Below the pieces are notes generated by a model that was not told the DNA's origin, did not search any database, and was given only the letters and a program-made list of their open reading frames with translations. From positions 1 through 64,000 of IMG/VR virus record IMGVR_UViG_3300011614_000002: a stretch of DNA of 64,000 nt. One strand, 5' to 3'. The translations under genes and the position numbers were made by a program. Within the stretch, counting starts at the first letter, position 1. The number at the start of each line of letters is the position of its first letter. Shown piece after piece: positions 10,744 through 62,881 of the stretch. The DNA comes from a virus (taxonomy: Duplodnaviria; Heunggongvirae; Uroviricota; Caudoviricetes).

Positions 10744-10951
10744 TTCGGGCGCAAATAGGGCACAGATCGAAAATTCAGGCGGGGCGAGATGACGTCATCG
10801 TGACAACAAATCGCCGACGGGAGGTGGACACTGCCTCCTGGCCTGGGTTTACATACTGAGGCCAACCCGTACAATTCAGTAAGCCGTAGACAGGACTCAC
10901 CAGTTCACTGAGCTGGGGGTTGGCGCCCCGAGTCCTGCCTACGGCTTTTTC

Positions 10952-11869
10952 ATGGATCCCATAATGGATAACGTCGTCACCATCTCGCCGCTCGCCATCG
11001 GCGGACACGTCCTTCAGACGTGCAATGCACGCGACCTGCATGCCTACCTGGAAGTCGGCAAAGACTTCTCGACCTGGATCAAAGATCGAATCGATCAATA
11101 CGAATTCGTCCAGGACGTCGATTTCACTGTTGTGAATCCCGGTCCCCAAAACGGGGGAGCGGGCAACCGCGGCCAGAAGATCGAATATTTCCTGTCCCTG
11201 GACATGGCGAAGGAGCTCTCCATGGTGGAGCGCTCGGCCAAGGGCAAGGAAGCGCGCCGCTACTTCATCGACTGCGAACGCCAGGCACGTGAAGCCCTGG
11301 CCCAGCTCAGCGCCCCGCCGGCGCCGGACGTCGATGCCATCCAGAAGGCTGAAGCCATCATCGCCCAGCGCGACCTGGCGGTGGCCTATCACCTGAACGC
11401 GGCAAGCCTGCTCACCGGCAAGAACTTCCGCGCGGTGAAGCCGCCCAAGCCACGCACGCCCAAGGCACTGCCGGCGCCCGATGAGAAAACCCGCGTGGCG
11501 CTCGATGCGCTGCTGGCCAAGTCGCTAGAATTTCAGGGCGAGCAGAAGTCGCTGCGCGACCTGCTGCAGATCCTGGCCACCCCGGCCGGCGAGCAGGACC
11601 TGATGGTCCAGGGTTCGGTGGCCAACGCGCTGCGCGTGGCCGGTATCGTGGTAGAAGGCGCCCTGGTGCTGTTCGGTACTGGCGTGCCCTACCTGCAGGA
11701 AGTCGCGAACCAGCTGTTCGGCGACAAGCAGGGCCTGCGCCCCTTCCTGACTGCGATCCCTGGCGCCGTGCGTACCGACAAAACACAGTCGTTCGCCGGT
11801 GCTAAATCCAAGGTCGTGAAGGTTCCATTGGCTGCTCTGTTCCCAGCAGCCATTGAGACCACCGCTTGA
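10952..11869 (+). CDS. AntA/AntB-domain antirepressor-like protein with C-terminal module shared with the primase
   Basis: N-terminus ARDLHAYLEVGKDFSTWIKDRIDQYEFVQDVDF matches the AntA antirepressor domain. The C-terminus FGTGVPYL...DKTQSFAGAKSKVVKVPLA is paralogous to the primase C-terminus. Confidence 0.7.
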   Translation: MDPIMDNVVTISPLAIGGHVLQTCNARDLHAYLEVGKDFSTWIKDRIDQYEFVQDVDFTVVNPGPQNGGAGNRGQKIEYFLSLDMAKELSMVERSAKGKEARRYFIDCERQAREALAQLSAPPAPDVDAIQKAEAIIAQRDLAVAYHLNAASLLTGKNFRAVKPPKPRTPKALPAPDEKTRVALDALLAKSLEFQGEQKSLRDLLQILATPAGEQDLMVQGSVANALRVAGIVVEGALVLFGTGVPYLQEVANQLFGDKQGLRPFLTAIPGAVRTDKTQSFAGAKSKVVKVPLAALFPAAIETTA

Positions 11870-12237
11870 CCACCAGCCCCTCCAGCGTTGACCCGACCGT
11901 CTGCCTTGCAGATGGCCGGGTCGTCTCCCGCAACTCAGTCGAATGGCTCGTTGAATGCGACGCGCTTTTCGTTCTGCGCAAGCACCACGCCCACCGCCCC
12001 GCCTGCATGTTGCTCCGGCATGAAAAGCGCAGCACCGACGCTGTCGCTGCCCTGGAAGCGAAGATGCACGAAATCGAGCCGGCCTATGTGCTGGACTACC
12101 TGCCCAACTACACCCAGCGCCACGCCTATGTGGCCGAGGTCCGGCAGTATCGTGGCGACAACCCCGCCGATCACCTGGCAGCGCGGATCCGCGCCCTGAT
12201 CGCTGCCCGTGCCGCCGCTCTTCCGGCCGCCGCCTAA
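11866..12237 (+). CDS. hypothetical protein (123 aa, non-ATG start)
   Basis: ORF only; start is TTG. Confidence 0.3.
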   Translation: MTTSPSSVDPTVCLADGRVVSRNSVEWLVECDALFVLRKHHAHRPACMLLRHEKRSTDAVAALEAKMHEIEPAYVLDYLPNYTQRHAYVAEVRQYRGDNPADHLAARIRALIAARAAALPAAA

Positions 12238-12330
12238 AAATCCCTTCCTTTATATAGCTGCTCAGCAGGTCGTGACGCGATTGTCGTCTGACCGCGCCGG
12301 GCGGATCCCGGTACGTCCCTGGGATCCGCT

Positions 12331-12540
12331 ATGCGTTACCTGTCCGAACTGTCCGCCTTCCTGCGCCGCCTGGTAGCAGACGACCGCGATCTGCTGCTGA
12401 TGGCGGGCGTGAACATTGGCTTCTGCATCGCCGACGCCACCACCGGCAAGTGGGAACTGTTAGCACTCCACCTCGCCGTCGCCGCGTTCGTCTTGTTCTG
12501 CTGGGACAGCGCTGGCCGCAAGGTCAAGGAGCGGGCATGA
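12331..12540 (+). CDS. small membrane protein (69 aa)
   Basis: Hydrophobic helices. First of a chain of overlapping small ORFs. Confidence 0.45.
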   Translation: MRYLSELSAFLRRLVADDRDLLLMAGVNIGFCIADATTGKWELLALHLAVAAFVLFCWDSAGRKVKERA

Positions 12541-12656
12541 CTGATCCTCAAAAGCTGCTTCTGGTGGCCGGCCTTTACGTCGTCGCCCTGGCCCTGGTGC
12601 TTGCCTTCAACCGCGGCGCCCATCGTGGCGAAGCCCAGGAAGAGGACCGGAAATGA
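12537..12656 (+). CDS. small membrane protein (39 aa)
   Basis: ATGA-coupled. Contains TM helix LLLVAGLYVVALALVLAF. Confidence 0.4.
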   Translation: MTDPQKLLLVAGLYVVALALVLAFNRGAHRGEAQEEDRK

Positions 12657-60631: not shown

Positions 60632-62353
60632 ATGCCCTACTATTTCAACGGCAAGAGCTGGGTGACCCCGGCCACCATGTCGGCCATCGACGATTCGGCT
60701 ATGGTCAGCACCAACCTGGGCGTTGGCAACTACGCTGCGTTCCTGGGTACCGCCACCGGCGGCAAGCCCAACACCAAGCTGGCCTTCGGCAGCGCGGCTG
60801 AAGCCATCGCTACCCTGCGCAGCGGCCCGCTGCTCGAAGCCATCAAGAAGGCCTTCGCCCCCAGCACCGAGACTGGCGGCCCGTCGACTGTATACGCTGT
60901 TCGCGTGAACCCTGCCGTGCAGTCGACCCTGAGCCTGGCGGACGTGAACGGCAACGCCGTGATTTCGCTCGCCTCGTCCGATTTCGGCCTGTGGACCAAG
61001 CAGGTCAAGGTGAAGATCGTGGCCGGCAGCAACCGCGGCGCGGCGATCACCACCCAGTACCAGGACAACTACTACACCCAGGACGACGTCGCGCGCTCCG
61101 CGTTCACCGTCCAGTACACCGGATCCCTGGCCTCGGCTGCGATGAGCGTCAATGGCACCGCTGTGACCCTGCAGGCGCCGAGCGGCACCACCGTGGCAAC
61201 TATCGACCTGGCCAGCGCCACCACCTACAGCCAGTTGGTCGATTACATCAACTCGGTCGCCGGCTGGAACGCGGTGCTGTCCGACAGCGCCTTCGAAGAT
61301 GCGGGCACCGTCAATGGCCTGGACTACGGCACCTTCACCGACGTGAAGACCAGCGCAGTCACCGTGACAGCGAACCTGCAGGCGATCATCGACTGGTTCA
61401 ACGGCAGCACCGAGGGCTATGTCACCGCGACCCGCCCTGCCACTGCTGGCGCCGTGCCCGCAGCCACCGGCGGCTTCGTGTTCCTGGCTGGCGGATCCGA
61501 CGGCGTGACCACCACCACCGAATGGTCGAATGCCTTCACCACGCTGCAGAGCATCGATGCCTACTGGATCTCGCCGGTGAGCTCGAACCCGGCTATCTGG
61601 GCCATGGCCGACGCGCATGTCCAGTACATGAGCAAGTACGGCCGCATGGAGCGCCGCGCGATCTGCGGTACCCCGGCTGGCACCACCGACGCCCAGGCGA
61701 TCGCCTACGCCAAGGCGCTGAACTCCGACCGTACCTCGCTGGTGCACATCGGTTACTACGACTACAACGCGGCCGGCAATCTGCAGCTGTTCGGCCCGAT
61801 GTACATGGCCGCCTTGCTGACCGGGATGTTCTCCGGCGTCAACCCGGGTACCGCGCTGAGCAACAAGACCATCAGCGTTTCCGGCCTGGAACGTGAGCTG
61901 CGCAACCCGACCGACACCGATCCGCTGATCACCGGCGGCGTGCTGTGCATCGAAAGCACGAACACCGGCTACAAGGTCGTCCAGTCGATCTCCACCTGGC
62001 TCAAGGACAGCAAGTTCAACCGTCGCGAGCAGTCCTGCGGCTGGGCGGCCGACTACACCGCTCGCAGCCTGCGCGAGGCGCTGGATGTGCTGCGTGGCCA
62101 GAAGAACAACGTGGTGGCCCTGGGGCGCGCCAAGTCCATCGCTGCCGGCGTACTCAACAACCTGGCTGTGGCTGAACCTTCCGGCCCTGGCGTGCTGGCA
62201 GGCGATGACAAGAACCCTGCGTGGAAAAACCTGGTGATCTCGGCCACTGGCGACGTCCTGCAGGTCGGTGTCCAGGCCAGCCCGGTCATCCCGATCAACT
62301 ACATCCCGGTATCGATCTCGCTGCAGGTCTTCACCGGCACCGCCTCTGCGTAA
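60632..62353 (+). CDS. tail sheath protein (putative)
   Basis: 573 aa, immediately followed by a 140-aa tube-sized gene. Confidence 0.55.
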   Translation: MPYYFNGKSWVTPATMSAIDDSAMVSTNLGVGNYAAFLGTATGGKPNTKLAFGSAAEAIATLRSGPLLEAIKKAFAPSTETGGPSTVYAVRVNPAVQSTLSLADVNGNAVISLASSDFGLWTKQVKVKIVAGSNRGAAITTQYQDNYYTQDDVARSAFTVQYTGSLASAAMSVNGTAVTLQAPSGTTVATIDLASATTYSQLVDYINSVAGWNAVLSDSAFEDAGTVNGLDYGTFTDVKTSAVTVTANLQAIIDWFNGSTEGYVTATRPATAGAVPAATGGFVFLAGGSDGVTTTTEWSNAFTTLQSIDAYWISPVSSNPAIWAMADAHVQYMSKYGRMERRAICGTPAGTTDAQAIAYAKALNSDRTSLVHIGYYDYNAAGNLQLFGPMYMAALLTGMFSGVNPGTALSNKTISVSGLERELRNPTDTDPLITGGVLCIESTNTGYKVVQSISTWLKDSKFNRREQSCGWAADYTARSLREALDVLRGQKNNVVALGRAKSIAAGVLNNLAVAEPSGPGVLAGDDKNPAWKNLVISATGDVLQVGVQASPVIPINYIPVSISLQVFTGTASA

Positions 62354-62363
62354 GGAGTAGAGC

Positions 62364-62786
62364 ATGAAGCAGAACCGCAAGGTCCGCAGTGGCAACCGGA
62401 TCGTCATCACCTACGACGGCTTCCAAGTCGGGTTCGTCCAGTCTGTCCGCATGAACGATGACTACTCGCCGGAGCCGGCGAGCGGCATCGGTGACATCCA
62501 CGTGCAGGAATACGTGCCGACCCTGGCCCGCCACCAGCTGACCGTCAGCCGGATGGTGCTGGAGGCGGACAAGATGCGCGAGCGTGGCATCTTCCCCGAG
62601 AACGGCGACGCCGCCCTGGAAGGCCTGGTCTTCGACATCGAGACCTACGCCAAGGATGACGGCACCCTGCTGCGCAAGTACATCGGCTGTTCCTATGCCA
62701 GTGGCGACTTGGAAATCTCCAAGCACGCCATCGTGATCGGCTCTGGCACCTTCATGGCGCTGGATACTTCCGGCACCGGCGCCTAA
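62364..62786 (+). CDS. tail tube protein (putative)
   Basis: 140 aa, following the sheath gene. Confidence 0.5.
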   Translation: MKQNRKVRSGNRIVITYDGFQVGFVQSVRMNDDYSPEPASGIGDIHVQEYVPTLARHQLTVSRMVLEADKMRERGIFPENGDAALEGLVFDIETYAKDDGTLLRKYIGCSYASGDLEISKHAIVIGSGTFMALDTSGTGA

Positions 62787-62804
62787 GCCGCAGCACCCTT
62801 CGAA

Positions 62805-62838
62805 AAGCCCGCCCTGTGCGGGCTTTTTGGTCGTGAGC
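62805..62838 (+). terminator. Rho-independent terminator after the tube gene
   Basis: AGCCCGC-CCTGT-GCGGGCT followed by TTTTT. Confidence 0.65.
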
Positions 62839-62881
62839 CGACAATGGTCCGGTCATTTTTCAGCGACCGAAGGACCCCCTC

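Follow-up and report, generated by a model that had tools for sequence, protein, structure and literature searches.

What do the short sequences that recur before most transcription units of this tailed phage do, and do they form a single unit? The window (64,000 nt, the whole stretch analysed) had been described in a first-pass annotation as carrying a three-part cassette, with part 1 directly after a stop codon, part 2 forming a 5-bp stem and part 3, GTCGTGAC, preceding the next start codon. The repeats are real and enriched, but the tripartite unit does not hold. Parts 1 and 2 are constantly linked at fixed spacing in the window copies; part 3 lies downstream of them at variable distance and is absent after 23460 and 26423. 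Searching related phages recovered part 3 at 211 sites. In relatives the element formed by parts 1 and 2 also occurs without a GTCGTGAC promoter on its 3' side, where a sigma-70-like promoter or an immediately adjoining ribosome-binding site and ATG stands instead, indicating that parts 1 and 2 are a separate junction element. We therefore favour, with moderate confidence and from sequence comparison, two distinct systems: a clade-specific promoter and a junction element of about 92 bp. The sites of both are collected in Table 1.

A 16-bp motif with promoter-like geometry

GTCGTGAC occurs in 18 exact copies in the window against 2.2 expected, and none of the shuffles reached 18, bearing out the suspected excess. 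Since the exact copies share T at +15 (18/18) and A at +11 (17/18), the true motif is 16 bp long, GTCGTGAY-N3-A-N3-T, with GTCGTGAC as its 5' half; C at +21 and A at +22 are each found in 13 of the 18. The A and T are spaced like -11 and -7 of a sigma-70-type -10 element, and in this alignment the 8-mer would occupy -22 to -15. The motif includes no -35 element, and no upstream conservation was seen across 211 clade sites. One-mismatch copies that keep A+11 and T+15 lie at 24525, 50908, 59450(-) and 62830, and possibly at 53892.

Most positions listed earlier for GTCGTGAC stand, with 12268 corrected to 12269 and 50688 to 50678; the copies at 8146(-) and 31783(+) had been missed. The site given as 10798 is actually ATCGTGAC at 10797, its downstream T one position off, and that given as 62839 is GTCGTGAG at 62830. 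Sites upstream of a gene are co-oriented with that gene, as had been claimed, and the divergent doubling at 46.8, 53.1 and 59.4 kb was confirmed, the partner at 59.4 kb being GGCGTGAC at 59450(-). In six cases the start codon lies exactly 22-23 nt from the motif start, and in most of the rest 31-62 nt, where 20-60 bp had been given before. At 3739, 50908 and 62830 the motif stands directly 3' of terminator-like hairpins with T-runs. Sigma-70-like promoters are no more frequent than expected by chance (3 observed and 3.0 expected at 10-29 kb; 1 and 2.9 at 44-64 kb), and a scan of the window found no alternative promoters either in the divergent gaps or along the structural region.

About 90 related loci yielded the 211 distinct motif sites, a set for which A+11 and T+15 were required, so that only the 18 exact window matches give an unbiased view of both positions. 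In 121 of the 211 sites the ATG of an ORF of 50 codons or more lies at +21 to +23, and in 97 it lies at +22. Most of 56 loci, which span 45-68% GC and have fully diverged flanks, retain both motif and spacing before the portal gene. Likewise, phages Jeremy and Touem01 show the same motif arrangement at orthologous genes. The -10-like geometry, post-terminator placement, divergent pairs and clade-wide fixed distance to the start codon support the earlier view that GTCGTGAC marks an element-specific promoter, and we read GTCGTGAY-N3-A-N3-T as a promoter specific to this phage clade.

Table 1. Putative promoter motifs and junction elements in the window; distances to ATG or gene are counted from the motif start.
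Feature	Position	Strand	Context
Promoter motif GTCGTGACGTGAGCAT	3724..3739	-	directly after terminator-like hairpin with T-run (GGCCCCgatGGGGCCTTTTTT); next ATG +42
Promoter motif GTCGTGACGGAACTAT	4399..4414	+	gap between minus-strand genes
Promoter motif	8138..8153	-	within 3' end of ORF 8058-8525(-); upstream of gene 6925-8040(-)
Promoter motif GTCGTGACGCGATTGT	12269..12284	+	ATG at 12331 (+62)
Promoter motif	13597..13612	+	directly after TAA triplet; next ATG +47
Promoter motif	15373..15388	+	56 nt past part 2 of junction element 2; ATG +31 (15404)
Promoter motif	17561..17576	+	76 nt past part 2 of junction element 3; gene 17607 at +46
Promoter motif	20125..20140	+	37 nt past part 2 of junction element 4; SPFH-domain gene at +44 (20169)
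One-mismatch promoter motif ATCGTGACGCGACCAT	24525..24540	+	homology with L090 starts exactly here
Promoter motif	25942..25957	+	TAA triplet two bases upstream; ATG +45 (25987)
Promoter motif	31783..31798	+	ATG of 1478-aa ORF at +22 (31805); predicted leaderless
Promoter motif	40877..40892	+	terminase ATG at +22 (40899); predicted leaderless
Promoter motif	45689..45704	-	upstream of Proteo-phage-1 RNA match (45531-45613, minus strand) and iteron/Rep_3 region
Promoter motif	46803..46818	-	leftward half of divergent pair, gap upstream of portal
Promoter motif	46854..46869	+	portal ATG at +22 (46876); predicted leaderless
Exact 8-mer without A at +11	50678..50693	+	weak or uncertain site
One-mismatch motif GTCGTGAGGCCAGAGT	50908..50923	+	directly after 14-bp-stem terminator 50868-50899; ATG +39
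Promoter motif	53089..53104	-	leftward half of divergent pair; before endonuclease VII or HNH-like gene 52421-53059(-)
Promoter motif	53137..53152	+	ATG +22 (53159); predicted leaderless; Jeremy homologue of gene annotated capsid maturation protease
One-mismatch motif GGCGTGACGCCAAGCT	59442..59457	-	ATG +23; predicted leaderless; minus-strand gene ending 58586
Promoter motif	59469..59484	+	ATG +22 (59491); predicted leaderless; Jeremy and Touem01 orthologues annotated as starting at motif +22
One-mismatch motif GTCGTGAGCCGACAAT	62830..62845	+	directly after terminator-like hairpin with T-run (GCCCGCcctgtGCGGGCTTTTT); ATG +52
Junction element 1	10671..10763	+	inverted repeat TCTGATTGTTAGTCTGA, variable segment, GGGCGCAAATAGGGCAC; degenerate promoter motif 10797, sigma-70-like promoter 10848-10875
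Junction element 2	15246..15336	+	inverted repeat, GC hairpin with T-rich tail, GGGCGCAAATAGGGCGC
Junction element 3	17414..17504	+	inverted repeat, hairpin then TTCTCATTTT, then GGGCGCGGGTAGGGCGC
Junction element 4	20015..20106	+	5'-arm TGA is stop codon of ORF 19672-20019; ends with GGGCGCAGATAGGGCGA
Junction element 5	23388..23479	+	perfect 6-bp inverted repeat CCAGAT...GTCTGA, then GGGCGCAAATGGGGCGC; no GTCGTGAC motif 3'
Junction element 6	26351..26442	+	5'-arm TGA is stop codon of ORF 25987-26355; good terminator-like hairpin with TTTTTCTT before GGGCGCGAATCGGGCTC; no GTCGTGAC motif 3'
TAGGGCAGGGTAGGGC, part 2-like variant, 10-bp period	46832..46847	+	between divergent portal-region promoters

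Predicted transcription starts and leaderless mRNAs

The closest precedent for the motif comes from Thermus phage Lalka27a, in which leaderless late promoters have been mapped and whose major capsid protein is ~35% identical to that of the window. Lalka27a has 16 predicted late promoters without a -35 element, with starts mapped 6 nt past the -10 for about half of them, and its transcripts are mostly leaderless. A divergent promoter pair adjoins its prohead protease gene, and the authors of that study attributed the late promoters to a modified host polymerase.

Judging from geometry, transcription in the window would begin at motif position +22, 7 nt beyond the T, with C-A preferred. An ATG at +22 would then give a leaderless mRNA, translated from a 5'-terminal AUG. 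At least six window genes are predicted to be of this kind, those for the 1478-aa protein, terminase, portal and protease homologue and the pair at 59.4 kb. Leaderless translation as a major mode would be unusual in Pseudomonas-type hosts. Host RNA polymerase may be directed to the 8-mer by a putative phage factor; neither the window nor the 73 unannotated Touem01 proteins searched yielded a phage sigma factor, an activator, an antiterminator or any Mor-, Ogr- or Lpa-like protein. In the window's lineage, genes for replication and recombination also have the motif in front of them, suggesting that it is a general phage promoter there and not a late-only one.

Could the motif instead be an operator, an asymmetric repressor site that, repeated along the genome in a single orientation, silences lysogen transcription like the stoperators of mycobacteriophage L5? 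Asymmetric intergenic copies co-oriented with transcription are the defining layout of L5 stoperators, and the short intergenic gaps of the window hold numerous asymmetric copies, each oriented in this way. Furthermore, the 8-mer would overlap the promoter spacer, an effective place for a repressor. An elongation block, however, offers no rationale for the fixed 22-nt start-codon distance (121/211 sites), and the linked A-N3-T fits -10 geometry. At sites directly after terminators there would be nothing left to stop, the divergent gaps and structural region have no alternative promoters, and the related Thermus phage has mapped starts at equivalent positions. We consider it very improbable that the motif is an operator instead of a promoter; it may be both. 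We find it very improbable that the motif serves a phage-encoded RNA polymerase, for which an unrecognised polymerase in the 1478-aa protein would be the candidate. Searches of this ORF against Pfam, PHROG and PDB sequences gave no match, and a compact 16-bp signal without a -35 resembles single-subunit polymerase promoters. However, no polymerase domain was found in the window or in the 73 scanned unannotated Touem01 proteins, none is annotated in Jeremy or Touem01, and the 1478-aa protein has a Jeremy homologue annotated as ADP-ribosyltransferase. A pattern in which A and T alone are conserved, 4 nt apart, as seen here, is the signature of sigma region 2. The Lalka27a late promoters, moreover, were ascribed by their authors to modified host polymerase.

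The junction element and its link to attP

A single ~92-bp element, with six window copies between 10.6 and 26.5 kb, has part 1 at one end and part 2 at the other. In it an inverted repeat is followed by a variable segment, terminator-like in some copies, and, ~74 nt downstream, by a tandem GGGCGC-N5-GGGCGC whose repeats are 11 bp apart. Part 2 does recur, in five copies within 3 mismatches (0.02 expected) and a more diverged one at 20088; its core GGGCGC-N3-T-N-GGGC is exact at 6/6 sites, but the proposed 5-bp stem is not conserved, its 3' arm being broken at 10744, 20088 and 26423, and a tandem direct repeat describes part 2 better than a stem-loop does. Part 1, the 3' arm of the inverted repeat, is exact only at 20024, 23397 and 26360, with variants at 10680, 15255 and 17423. 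Rather than always directly preceding part 1, the upstream stop codon is part of the 5'-arm CTGA in two copies, and two further copies have it only a few nt away. A terminator role, also suggested before, would apply to some cassettes only: intrinsic-terminator-like hairpins are convincing in only some window copies, and a consensus scan flagged none. Copies with a terminator have part 2 on the far side of its T-run.

A profile search returned the six window copies and three from the relative L090 at E < 1e-17, the profile having been built from these same nine copies; independent, weaker matches fall in intergenic gaps of relatives. The inverted repeat ~74 nt before the tandem repeat is kept in ~33 copies. 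In several relatives a ribosome-binding site and ATG directly follow the tandem repeat, which must therefore lie inside the mRNA there.

In Jeremy, the attP repeats and 7 junction elements are of the GGGCGC type, and in Touem01 the attP repeats and 3 junction elements are of the GGGCCCC type; neither carries the other's repeat type. A third contig is consistent, with GGGCGC at both attP and junction elements. This co-variation comprises two sequence types, and part of it could come from gene conversion between copies in the same genome. PF13356, the Pfam arm-DNA-binding domain, is present in the integrases, and attP of Jeremy and Touem01 adjoins such an integrase. A 98%-identical relative of the window also has one, with TTCGGGCGCAACTTCGGGCGC directly upstream; the period of the integrase-adjacent repeat there is 12 bp, and a tRNA-Arg core was looked for at that place and not found. 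No attP was seen in the window itself. Because the tandem repeat changes together with the attP-flanking repeats, it is probably DNA to which a protein binds, and not a hairpin. This favours a DNA-binding protein from the integration system over a sigma factor or an RNA-processing signal.

A role as RNA, in processing, 3'-end stabilisation or antitermination through a part-1 hairpin and a part-2 GCGC/GCGC stem, is an alternative that we judge unlikely. All copies are co-oriented with transcription, overall length is constant, and part 2 is transcribed in the several relatives noted above. The part-1 stem is paired in 79% of cells, above shifted-register controls, with double changes from U-A to A-U and from C-G to U-A, six times each. 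Against this, no Rfam family matched even at a permissive threshold, RNAalifold reported no covariation, and in 14 of 33 copies the part-1 stem contains a U-U mismatch. In part 2 it is the GGG of each repeat that is conserved and not the 3' arm of the stem, the same repeats flank and change with attP, a DNA recombination site, and part 2 lies past the T-run where there is a terminator. We give little credence to the junction elements being functionless at present, as scars or homogenised linkers from repeated recombination of accessory modules. Homology breakpoints do coincide with them, and their sequences are lineage-specific, as under concerted evolution. However, the GGGCGC hexamers and 74-nt spacing are kept across phages of 45-68% GC while the intervening sequence has fully diverged, indicating purifying selection, and strict orientation and register with stop codons would not be expected of scars.

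Junction elements and mosaicism

Between the window and L090, homology blocks begin at promoter motifs and end near junction elements, with which the mosaic breakpoints coincide; homology resumes at 31779, within a few bases of the motif at 31783(+). We read the junction elements as closing accessory-gene cassettes; the likely ligand of their tandem repeat would be the arm-binding domain of the integrase or a partner protein, for instance an excision factor. More speculatively, a protein sitting just past the terminator T-run might insulate or conditionally regulate each cassette, and the shared junction sequences may also act as breakpoints for cassette exchange.

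A conserved promoter-like motif lacking a -35 element

The first-pass annotation had proposed a single tripartite cassette preceding most transcription units and acting as a regulatory grammar. The grammar is real, non-random and conserved: the 8-mer GTCGTGAC occurs 18 times in the window against 2.2 copies expected and is retained across the clade. The single cassette gives way to two systems, a promoter-like motif (the former part 3) and a junction element (the former parts 1 and 2). We aligned the 18 exact matches to the 8-mer without selection on any flanking base. Counting from the motif start, T+15 was found in all 18 and A+11 in 17, yielding the 16-bp pattern GTCGTGAY-N3-A-N3-T. 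Weaker preferences were seen for A+14 and C+10, and C+21 and A+22 each occurred in 13 of the 18 matches.

An A and a T four positions apart are the bases flipped out of the -10 element by sigma-70-family factors (positions -11 and -7). Read in this way, A+11 and T+15 would be the -11 and -7 of a sigma-70-type -10, the 8-mer would occupy -22 to -15, and transcription is predicted to start at motif position +22. The preference for C+21 and A+22, as well as the presence of ATG at +22, fit a predicted purine start 6-8 nt after the -10. No -35 hexamer accompanies the motif, as information is close to zero over the 30 nt upstream of the 18 window sites and 211 clade sites. The TG of a classical extended -10 is likewise absent; positions -15 and -14 are C and R, and the TG of the 8-mer would fall at -18/-17.

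The placement of the sites is orderly. All window sites located upstream of a gene point toward that gene, and three short gaps between divergent genes contain back-to-back pairs. Three sites lie directly 3' of a GC hairpin with a T-run, positions where a new promoter is needed. One-mismatch copies that keep both A+11 and T+15 are found at 24525, 50908, 59450(-) and 62830. Sigma-70-type promoters were at or below chance (3 versus 3.0 expected at 10-29 kb; 1 versus 2.9 at 44-64 kb). We infer that the motif is a promoter using the host polymerase together with a phage factor.

Promoter spacing predicts leaderless mRNAs

The ATG lies exactly 22 nt from the motif start at 31805, 40899, 46876, 53159 and 59491, and 23 nt from it in the minus-strand gene at 59.4 kb. 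Since only six bases separate the -10 from the ATG, a Shine-Dalgarno sequence cannot fit, and genes with their ATG at +22 or +23 would be translated from leaderless mRNAs. Leaderless translation is uncommon in Proteobacteria, the hosts of these phages. A Shine-Dalgarno-like role for the motif itself was rejected: its GUGAU could pair with 16S rRNA, but at 14 nt from the AUG the spacing is wrong.

The arrangement is maintained in related phages. In the Pseudomonas phages Jeremy and Touem01, the motif precedes orthologous genes at an identical distance. A portal-protein search fetched 80 IMG/VR loci, 56 of them with an identifiable portal start; in most of these 56, GTCGTGAY-N3-A-N3-T ends 6-7 nt before the portal ATG, in genomes of 45-68% GC and with unrelated flanks. 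Altogether, 1.4 Mb of sequence from the clade contains 211 non-identical motif sites. In 121 of them an ORF of 50 codons or more begins with an ATG at +21 to +23, and in 97 this ATG is precisely at +22. An exact-pattern scan of Touem01 and Jeremy detected the motif solely on the strand that carries the late and accessory genes. In a relative sharing 98% identity with the window, the motif is also located 43 nt upstream of an exonuclease gene and at three more sites among replication, integrase and tail-fibre genes; therefore it appears to serve as a general phage promoter in the window's lineage.

The rule bears on gene annotation. Automatic callers disagree on the gene at 59485-60318 and on its equivalent in L232/L233, choosing GTG 59485 or an ATG that gives 247 aa. 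The promoter rule points to ATG 59491 (275 aa), in agreement with the annotated starts of the Jeremy and Touem01 orthologues; one automatic caller had set the start downstream of this predicted ATG. Leaderless genes of the clade are likely mis-started by Shine-Dalgarno-dependent callers.

Touem01 encodes a 52-aa protein matching Pfam RMF, the ribosome modulation factor (Touem01_00101, L005:32263-32421 on the minus strand; E 9e-7). RMF blocks the anti-Shine-Dalgarno region, and a phage copy might favour leaderless mRNAs. As an aid to leaderless translation in the window this was discarded, since the window has no homologue.

Known promoter systems and the search for a phage factor

The best match in kind is the Thermus phage Lalka27a. 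Its 16 late promoters have no -35 and share a special TAGGGT -10 and a conserved C upstream; for about half of the 16, mapping placed the start 6 nt downstream of the -10. Most of the transcripts are leaderless, two divergent promoters adjoin the prohead protease gene, and the authors infer a phage factor (bioRxiv 10.64898/2026.04.20.719267). The window shares with Lalka27a many late-region promoters without a -35, built from a phage-specific signal at a TANNNT-type -10 and, as predicted here, starting a few nt beyond it and giving mostly leaderless transcripts; a second Thermus phage, YS40, also has leaderless transcripts (bioRxiv 10.64898/2026.04.20.719267). A divergent promoter pair stands beside the protease gene in both Lalka27a and the window phage, and in neither was a specificity factor found. 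The window's major capsid protein is ~35% identical to those of Lalka8, 27a and 27b (E ~1e-63). The signals differ: TAGGGT with a C at -25 there, GTCGTGAY at -22 to -15 with yA-N3-T here, and the window and clade motif has no GGG in the -10 region and no conservation at -25. Furthermore, starts were mapped in Lalka27a, whereas the window promoters are predicted from sequence alone, and the Lalka27a promoters are late, whereas the motif in the window's lineage also precedes replication and recombination genes. The promoter is a known type of system with a new signal, the layout of Lalka27a in a different sequence.

Phage P1 offers another comparison, being likewise a temperate myovirus of ~90 kb for which plasmid life is possible. 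Its 11 late promoters are similar in layout: each combines a '-22 region', an inverted repeat of 9 bp, with a -10 hexamer and lacks a -35. One reads ATGTGACTT-tcgt-TACCCT, and GTGAC is the run of letters that it has in common with the window motif. However, the upstream element and the -10 are 4-9 bp apart in the two annotated P1 examples and 2 bp apart here, and the P1 promoters are activated by Lpa, of which no homologue was found here: a tblastn search with P1 Lpa, covering the window together with four loci from Jeremy, Touem01 and Mecenats66 (L003 and L005 not among them), reached E 1.1 at best, and no PHROG or Pfam match to Lpa was obtained either. No P1 late mRNA is known to be leaderless. 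The motif also resembles the stoperators of phage L5 in being asymmetric, intergenic and co-oriented with transcription. Stoperators act inside transcribed DNA at no set distance from start codons or terminators, and a stoperator reading is contradicted by the fixed 22-nt distance to the ATG and by the sites right after terminators.

Searches of Pfam, PHROGs and NCBIfam with ~60 window proteins and 73 unannotated Touem01 proteins detected no sigma factor, no Mor, Ogr or Lpa-type activator and no RNA polymerase. Two proteins are candidates for the factor by position only: a clade-specific Cys-rich protein of 178 aa (9322-9858), which heads the rightward gene block, and a 137-aa protein with Cys pairs (9880-10293), also at the head of that block. 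Host sigma-54, RpoH, FliA, AlgU and PvdS were considered as alternatives, and none of their consensus sequences fits the motif. A literature search with the motif string returned primer noise only, and the Mecenats66 genome paper, the only one on a member of the clade, mentions neither promoters nor motifs.

A junction element of fixed geometry ends accessory cassettes

The six window copies of the second system, at 10.7, 15.3, 17.4, 20.0, 23.4 and 26.4 kb (elements 1 to 6), align over ~92 nt; parts 1 and 2 are the two ends of one junction element with fixed geometry. An inverted repeat, yC(T/A)GAy-N5-rTC(T/A)Gr, has part 1 as its 3' arm. At 20.0 and 26.4 kb the upstream ORF terminates at the TGA within the 5' arm, and at 15.3 and 17.4 kb its stop codon is no more than a few nt away. 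Because the upstream ORFs belong to unrelated families, part 1 as a conserved protein C-terminus was rejected. Part 2 had been described as a short stem, which is not maintained among the copies; it is instead a tandem repeat, GGGCGC-N3-T-N-GGGCGC, whose core is exact at all six sites.

The centre of the element is variable. A hairpin with a T-run is clear at 26.4 kb and plausible at 15.3 and 17.4 kb, and a terminator-like hairpin is weak or absent at 10.7, 20.0 and 23.4 kb. A terminator consensus scan flagged none of the six window elements; among relatives, about half of the copies look like good terminators when the sequences are read by eye.

An exact search of IMG/VR for part 2 gave no match. 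A gapped pattern of parts 1 and 2 recovered one true relative, contig 3300014644_000001 (89 kb, portal protein 80% identical to that of the window), which carries the element three times. Diverged copies, detected by profile search and a repeat-pattern scan, occupy intergenic gaps in the accessory region of Jeremy and in a dozen other relatives. In ~33 copies the inverted repeat starts ~74 nt before the tandem repeat, regardless of the sequence between. The inverted repeat has 79% of cells paired with modest covariation, and a U-U mismatch in 14 of 33 copies. With Rfam 15 the element had no match, whether scored at the gathering threshold or with E values up to 5. A hammerhead or other ribozyme and a tRNA-like structure were rejected, as core motifs misfit and both ARAGORN and Rfam were negative.

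Three kinds of sequence occur after the tandem repeat: a GTCGTGAC promoter, a sigma-70-like promoter containing the palindrome TCAAATTTGA, or immediately an RBS and ATG. TCAAATTTGA is a perfect 10-bp palindrome within an AT-rich sigma-70-like promoter downstream of many of the junction elements found in relatives (see table), and it resembles the operator of a dimeric repressor. Window element 6 is followed by related ATATTTGATAA sequences at ~26480-26530. After element 5, a cassette of lower GC encodes a HigB-type toxin (Pfam HigB_toxin) and then a 146-aa ORF (23572-24332), likely a toxin-antitoxin pair, with a sigma-70-like promoter ahead of it at 23555-23583.

Junction repeats match attP repeats of the same genome

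In Jeremy, a sequence matching the 3' end of a tRNA-Arg gene adjoins the integrase gene. This sequence, taken as the putative attP core, is flanked on both sides by copies of GGGCGCAGGTCGGGCGC. Touem01 has the same core with the flanking repeats GGGCCCCAATCGGGCCCC and GGGCCCCACATGGGCCCC. Its accessory region contains three junction elements of GGGCCCC type, ~74 nt after CCWGAT...ATCTTG, and none of GGGCGC type; Jeremy, in turn, contains seven of GGGCGC type and none of GGGCCCC type. A third relative, contig 2823949316_000001, carries GGGCGC both at attP and at cassette junctions. The junction repeats match the attP repeats of the same genome, in two sequence types. Five further attP regions from IMG/VR relatives present three repeat types, all with an 11-bp period and on both sides of the tRNA-Arg core. 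In the 98%-identical relative, TTCGGGCGCAACTTCGGGCGC, made of GGGCGC repeats, lies directly upstream of the integrase gene. Between that gene and a divergent gene of 120 aa, at L234:13150-13200, a LexA-box-like sequence, CTGTATTTATAGACAG, hints that this lineage is under SOS control.

PF13356, the arm-DNA-binding domain, is present in the integrases. The match to the attP repeats and the presence of this domain suggest that part 2 is a DNA site, probably bound by the arm-binding domain of the integrase or by a partner such as an excision factor. There is precedent in P2 Cox, which binds direct repeats in attP and at promoters and so links recombination to transcription. As with tyrosine-integrase arm sites, tandem direct repeats with a 10-12 bp period surround the attP core and an arm-domain integrase is encoded. 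Unlike known arm sites or Cox boxes, the repeats here also end many accessory cassettes far from attP, and each cassette repeat keeps a constant distance to an inverted repeat; binding at part 2 is predicted from sequence.

Promoter motifs and junction elements coincide with mosaic boundaries

We compared the window with the 89-kb relative (L090). Homology starts exactly at the motif at 24525, and a few bases ahead of the 31783 motif, at 31779. One block ends at 26294, near element 6, and another in Mom, ~400 nt short of element 4; the blocks are separated by unrelated genes. The breakpoints coincide with promoters and junction elements, which therefore bracket exchangeable modules. Indels relative to the near-identical locus L229 read as lying at ordinary gene boundaries.

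Two known systems resemble this arrangement. The PeSL sequences of T4-type phages (early promoter plus stem-loop), according to Arbiol et al. 2010, reportedly bracket accessory ORFs at mosaic boundaries, and here too short conserved stem-loop and promoter sequences surround variable ORFs at mosaic edges. The sequences are unrelated, however; the elements here include an additional tandem repeat shared with attP, and the sigma-70 early host promoter of PeSL is not used. Integron attC sites are likewise located at the 3' end of cassettes, with conserved ends and a variable centre, and, as here, the genome also encodes a tyrosine recombinase. This likeness raises the idea that the 10-31 kb region is an integron-like array of phage gene cassettes. 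Each cassette would end in a partial att-like site, with the inverted repeat as a core-type site and integrase arm-type repeats at a fixed 74 bp from it; the phage tyrosine integrase and excision factor would insert, excise or swap cassettes, every one of which would have its own phage promoter. Such an array seems to us improbable; if real, it would give temperate phages and phage-plasmids a new way of turning over accessory genes. Compared with attC sites, the two conserved ends are not complementary when the sequences are read, the R''/R' core motif is lacking, no integron-type integrase or attI was seen, and cassettes in the window, unlike those of integrons, have their own promoters. That part 2 acts as a roadblock reinforcing termination, or as a recombination site, is speculative.

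The window phage and its relatives

The window (~63% GC) belongs to a tailed phage whose main genes are listed in the table. An 87-kb Logan contig, SRR1749415_217, is 100% identical to its first 19.9 kb. Named relatives, with patchy DNA similarity, are the Pseudomonas phages Touem01, Jeremy and Dolphis, Aeromonas ST4, Morganella Mecenats66 and Bordetella PHB04, all with genomes of ~86-95 kb; Jeremy and Touem01, the two examined in full, both encode an integrase. The accessory genes at 10-31 kb include AntA, a metallophosphatase, Mom, an SPFH protein, NinX, the HigB toxin, an HNH-repeat protein, DUF4406 and a C5 methylase.

Coordinates of annotated genes and of the palindrome downstream of junction elements
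Feature	Sequence	Position	Remark
Toprim primase	window	2-2683	
Terminase	window	40899-43508	
Portal	window	46876-48558	
Major capsid protein	window	54696-56162	
Tail sheath	window	60632-62353	
Integrase (PF13356 + PF00589)	L234	13352-14572	98%-identical relative of the window
TCAAATTTGA palindrome	L093	~250-300(-)	related locus
TCAAATTTGA palindrome	L098		related locus
TCAAATTTGA palindrome	L116	~15240	related locus
TCAAATTTGA palindrome	L001	~14175	related locus
TCAAATTTGA palindrome	L090	~2700(-)	89-kb relative

A plasmid-type replication initiator with Pfam Rep3_N and Rep3_C is encoded at 43942-44934 (-). Seven copies of a 19-bp iteron, AAAGTCCGAAATTTGTAGC, adjoin the gene (region 43942-45414), four of them in tandem with 21-bp spacing; therefore the phage looks like a phage-plasmid, set against the integrase also present in its 98%-identical relative. 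The sole Rfam match in the window, Proteo-phage-1 RNA (45531-45613 on the minus strand; 59.9 bits versus a gathering score of 42), is placed between the GTCGTGAC motif at 45704(-) and the iteron/Rep region, ~70 nt downstream of the start predicted for that motif.

A non-coding region of ~750 bp and lower GC (8560-9320) between the leftward and rightward gene blocks is dense in GGTAACC/GTAACC. The window contains 24 copies of GGTAACC versus 3.2 expected, 8 of the 24 at 8716-9151, and TCAAATATGATCAA is present twice in the region, which may serve as operator, origin or packaging region. A hairpin family with the common stem GCGGTAAC...GTTACCGC, at 5029, 16629, 17530, 22571, 23338, 33401, 41463, 52102 and 56509, shares the GTAAC core with this cluster (8.6-9.3 kb); some of the hairpins are intergenic and some lie within genes. 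No match was obtained for the 1478-aa ORF at 31805-36241 with Pfam, PHROG or PDB sequences. The ORF has an internal ~220-nt repeat, 70% identical and 366 nt apart (32024-32245 and 32390-32611), and a second repeat pair at 32637 and 33963; its Jeremy homologue carries an ADP-ribosyltransferase annotation.

Implications for the clade

The clade comprises temperate myoviruses of ~85-98 kb, with Pseudomonas, Aeromonas, Bordetella, Morganella and Yersinia among their hosts. If confirmed, one compact promoter would drive much of the genome in this large and barely studied group, with many mRNAs leaderless, and a leaderless strategy so far mapped only in Thermus phages would extend to Proteobacteria. 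It would also provide an immediate rule for correcting gene starts and a clean 16-bp orthogonal promoter, and would raise the question of what phage factor recognises GTCGTGAY. Of the two systems, the less expected is the junction element, linked as it is to attP. It ties the integration machinery to the boundaries of accessory cassettes, and makes testable how the 'moron' regions of phages are insulated, regulated and shuffled.
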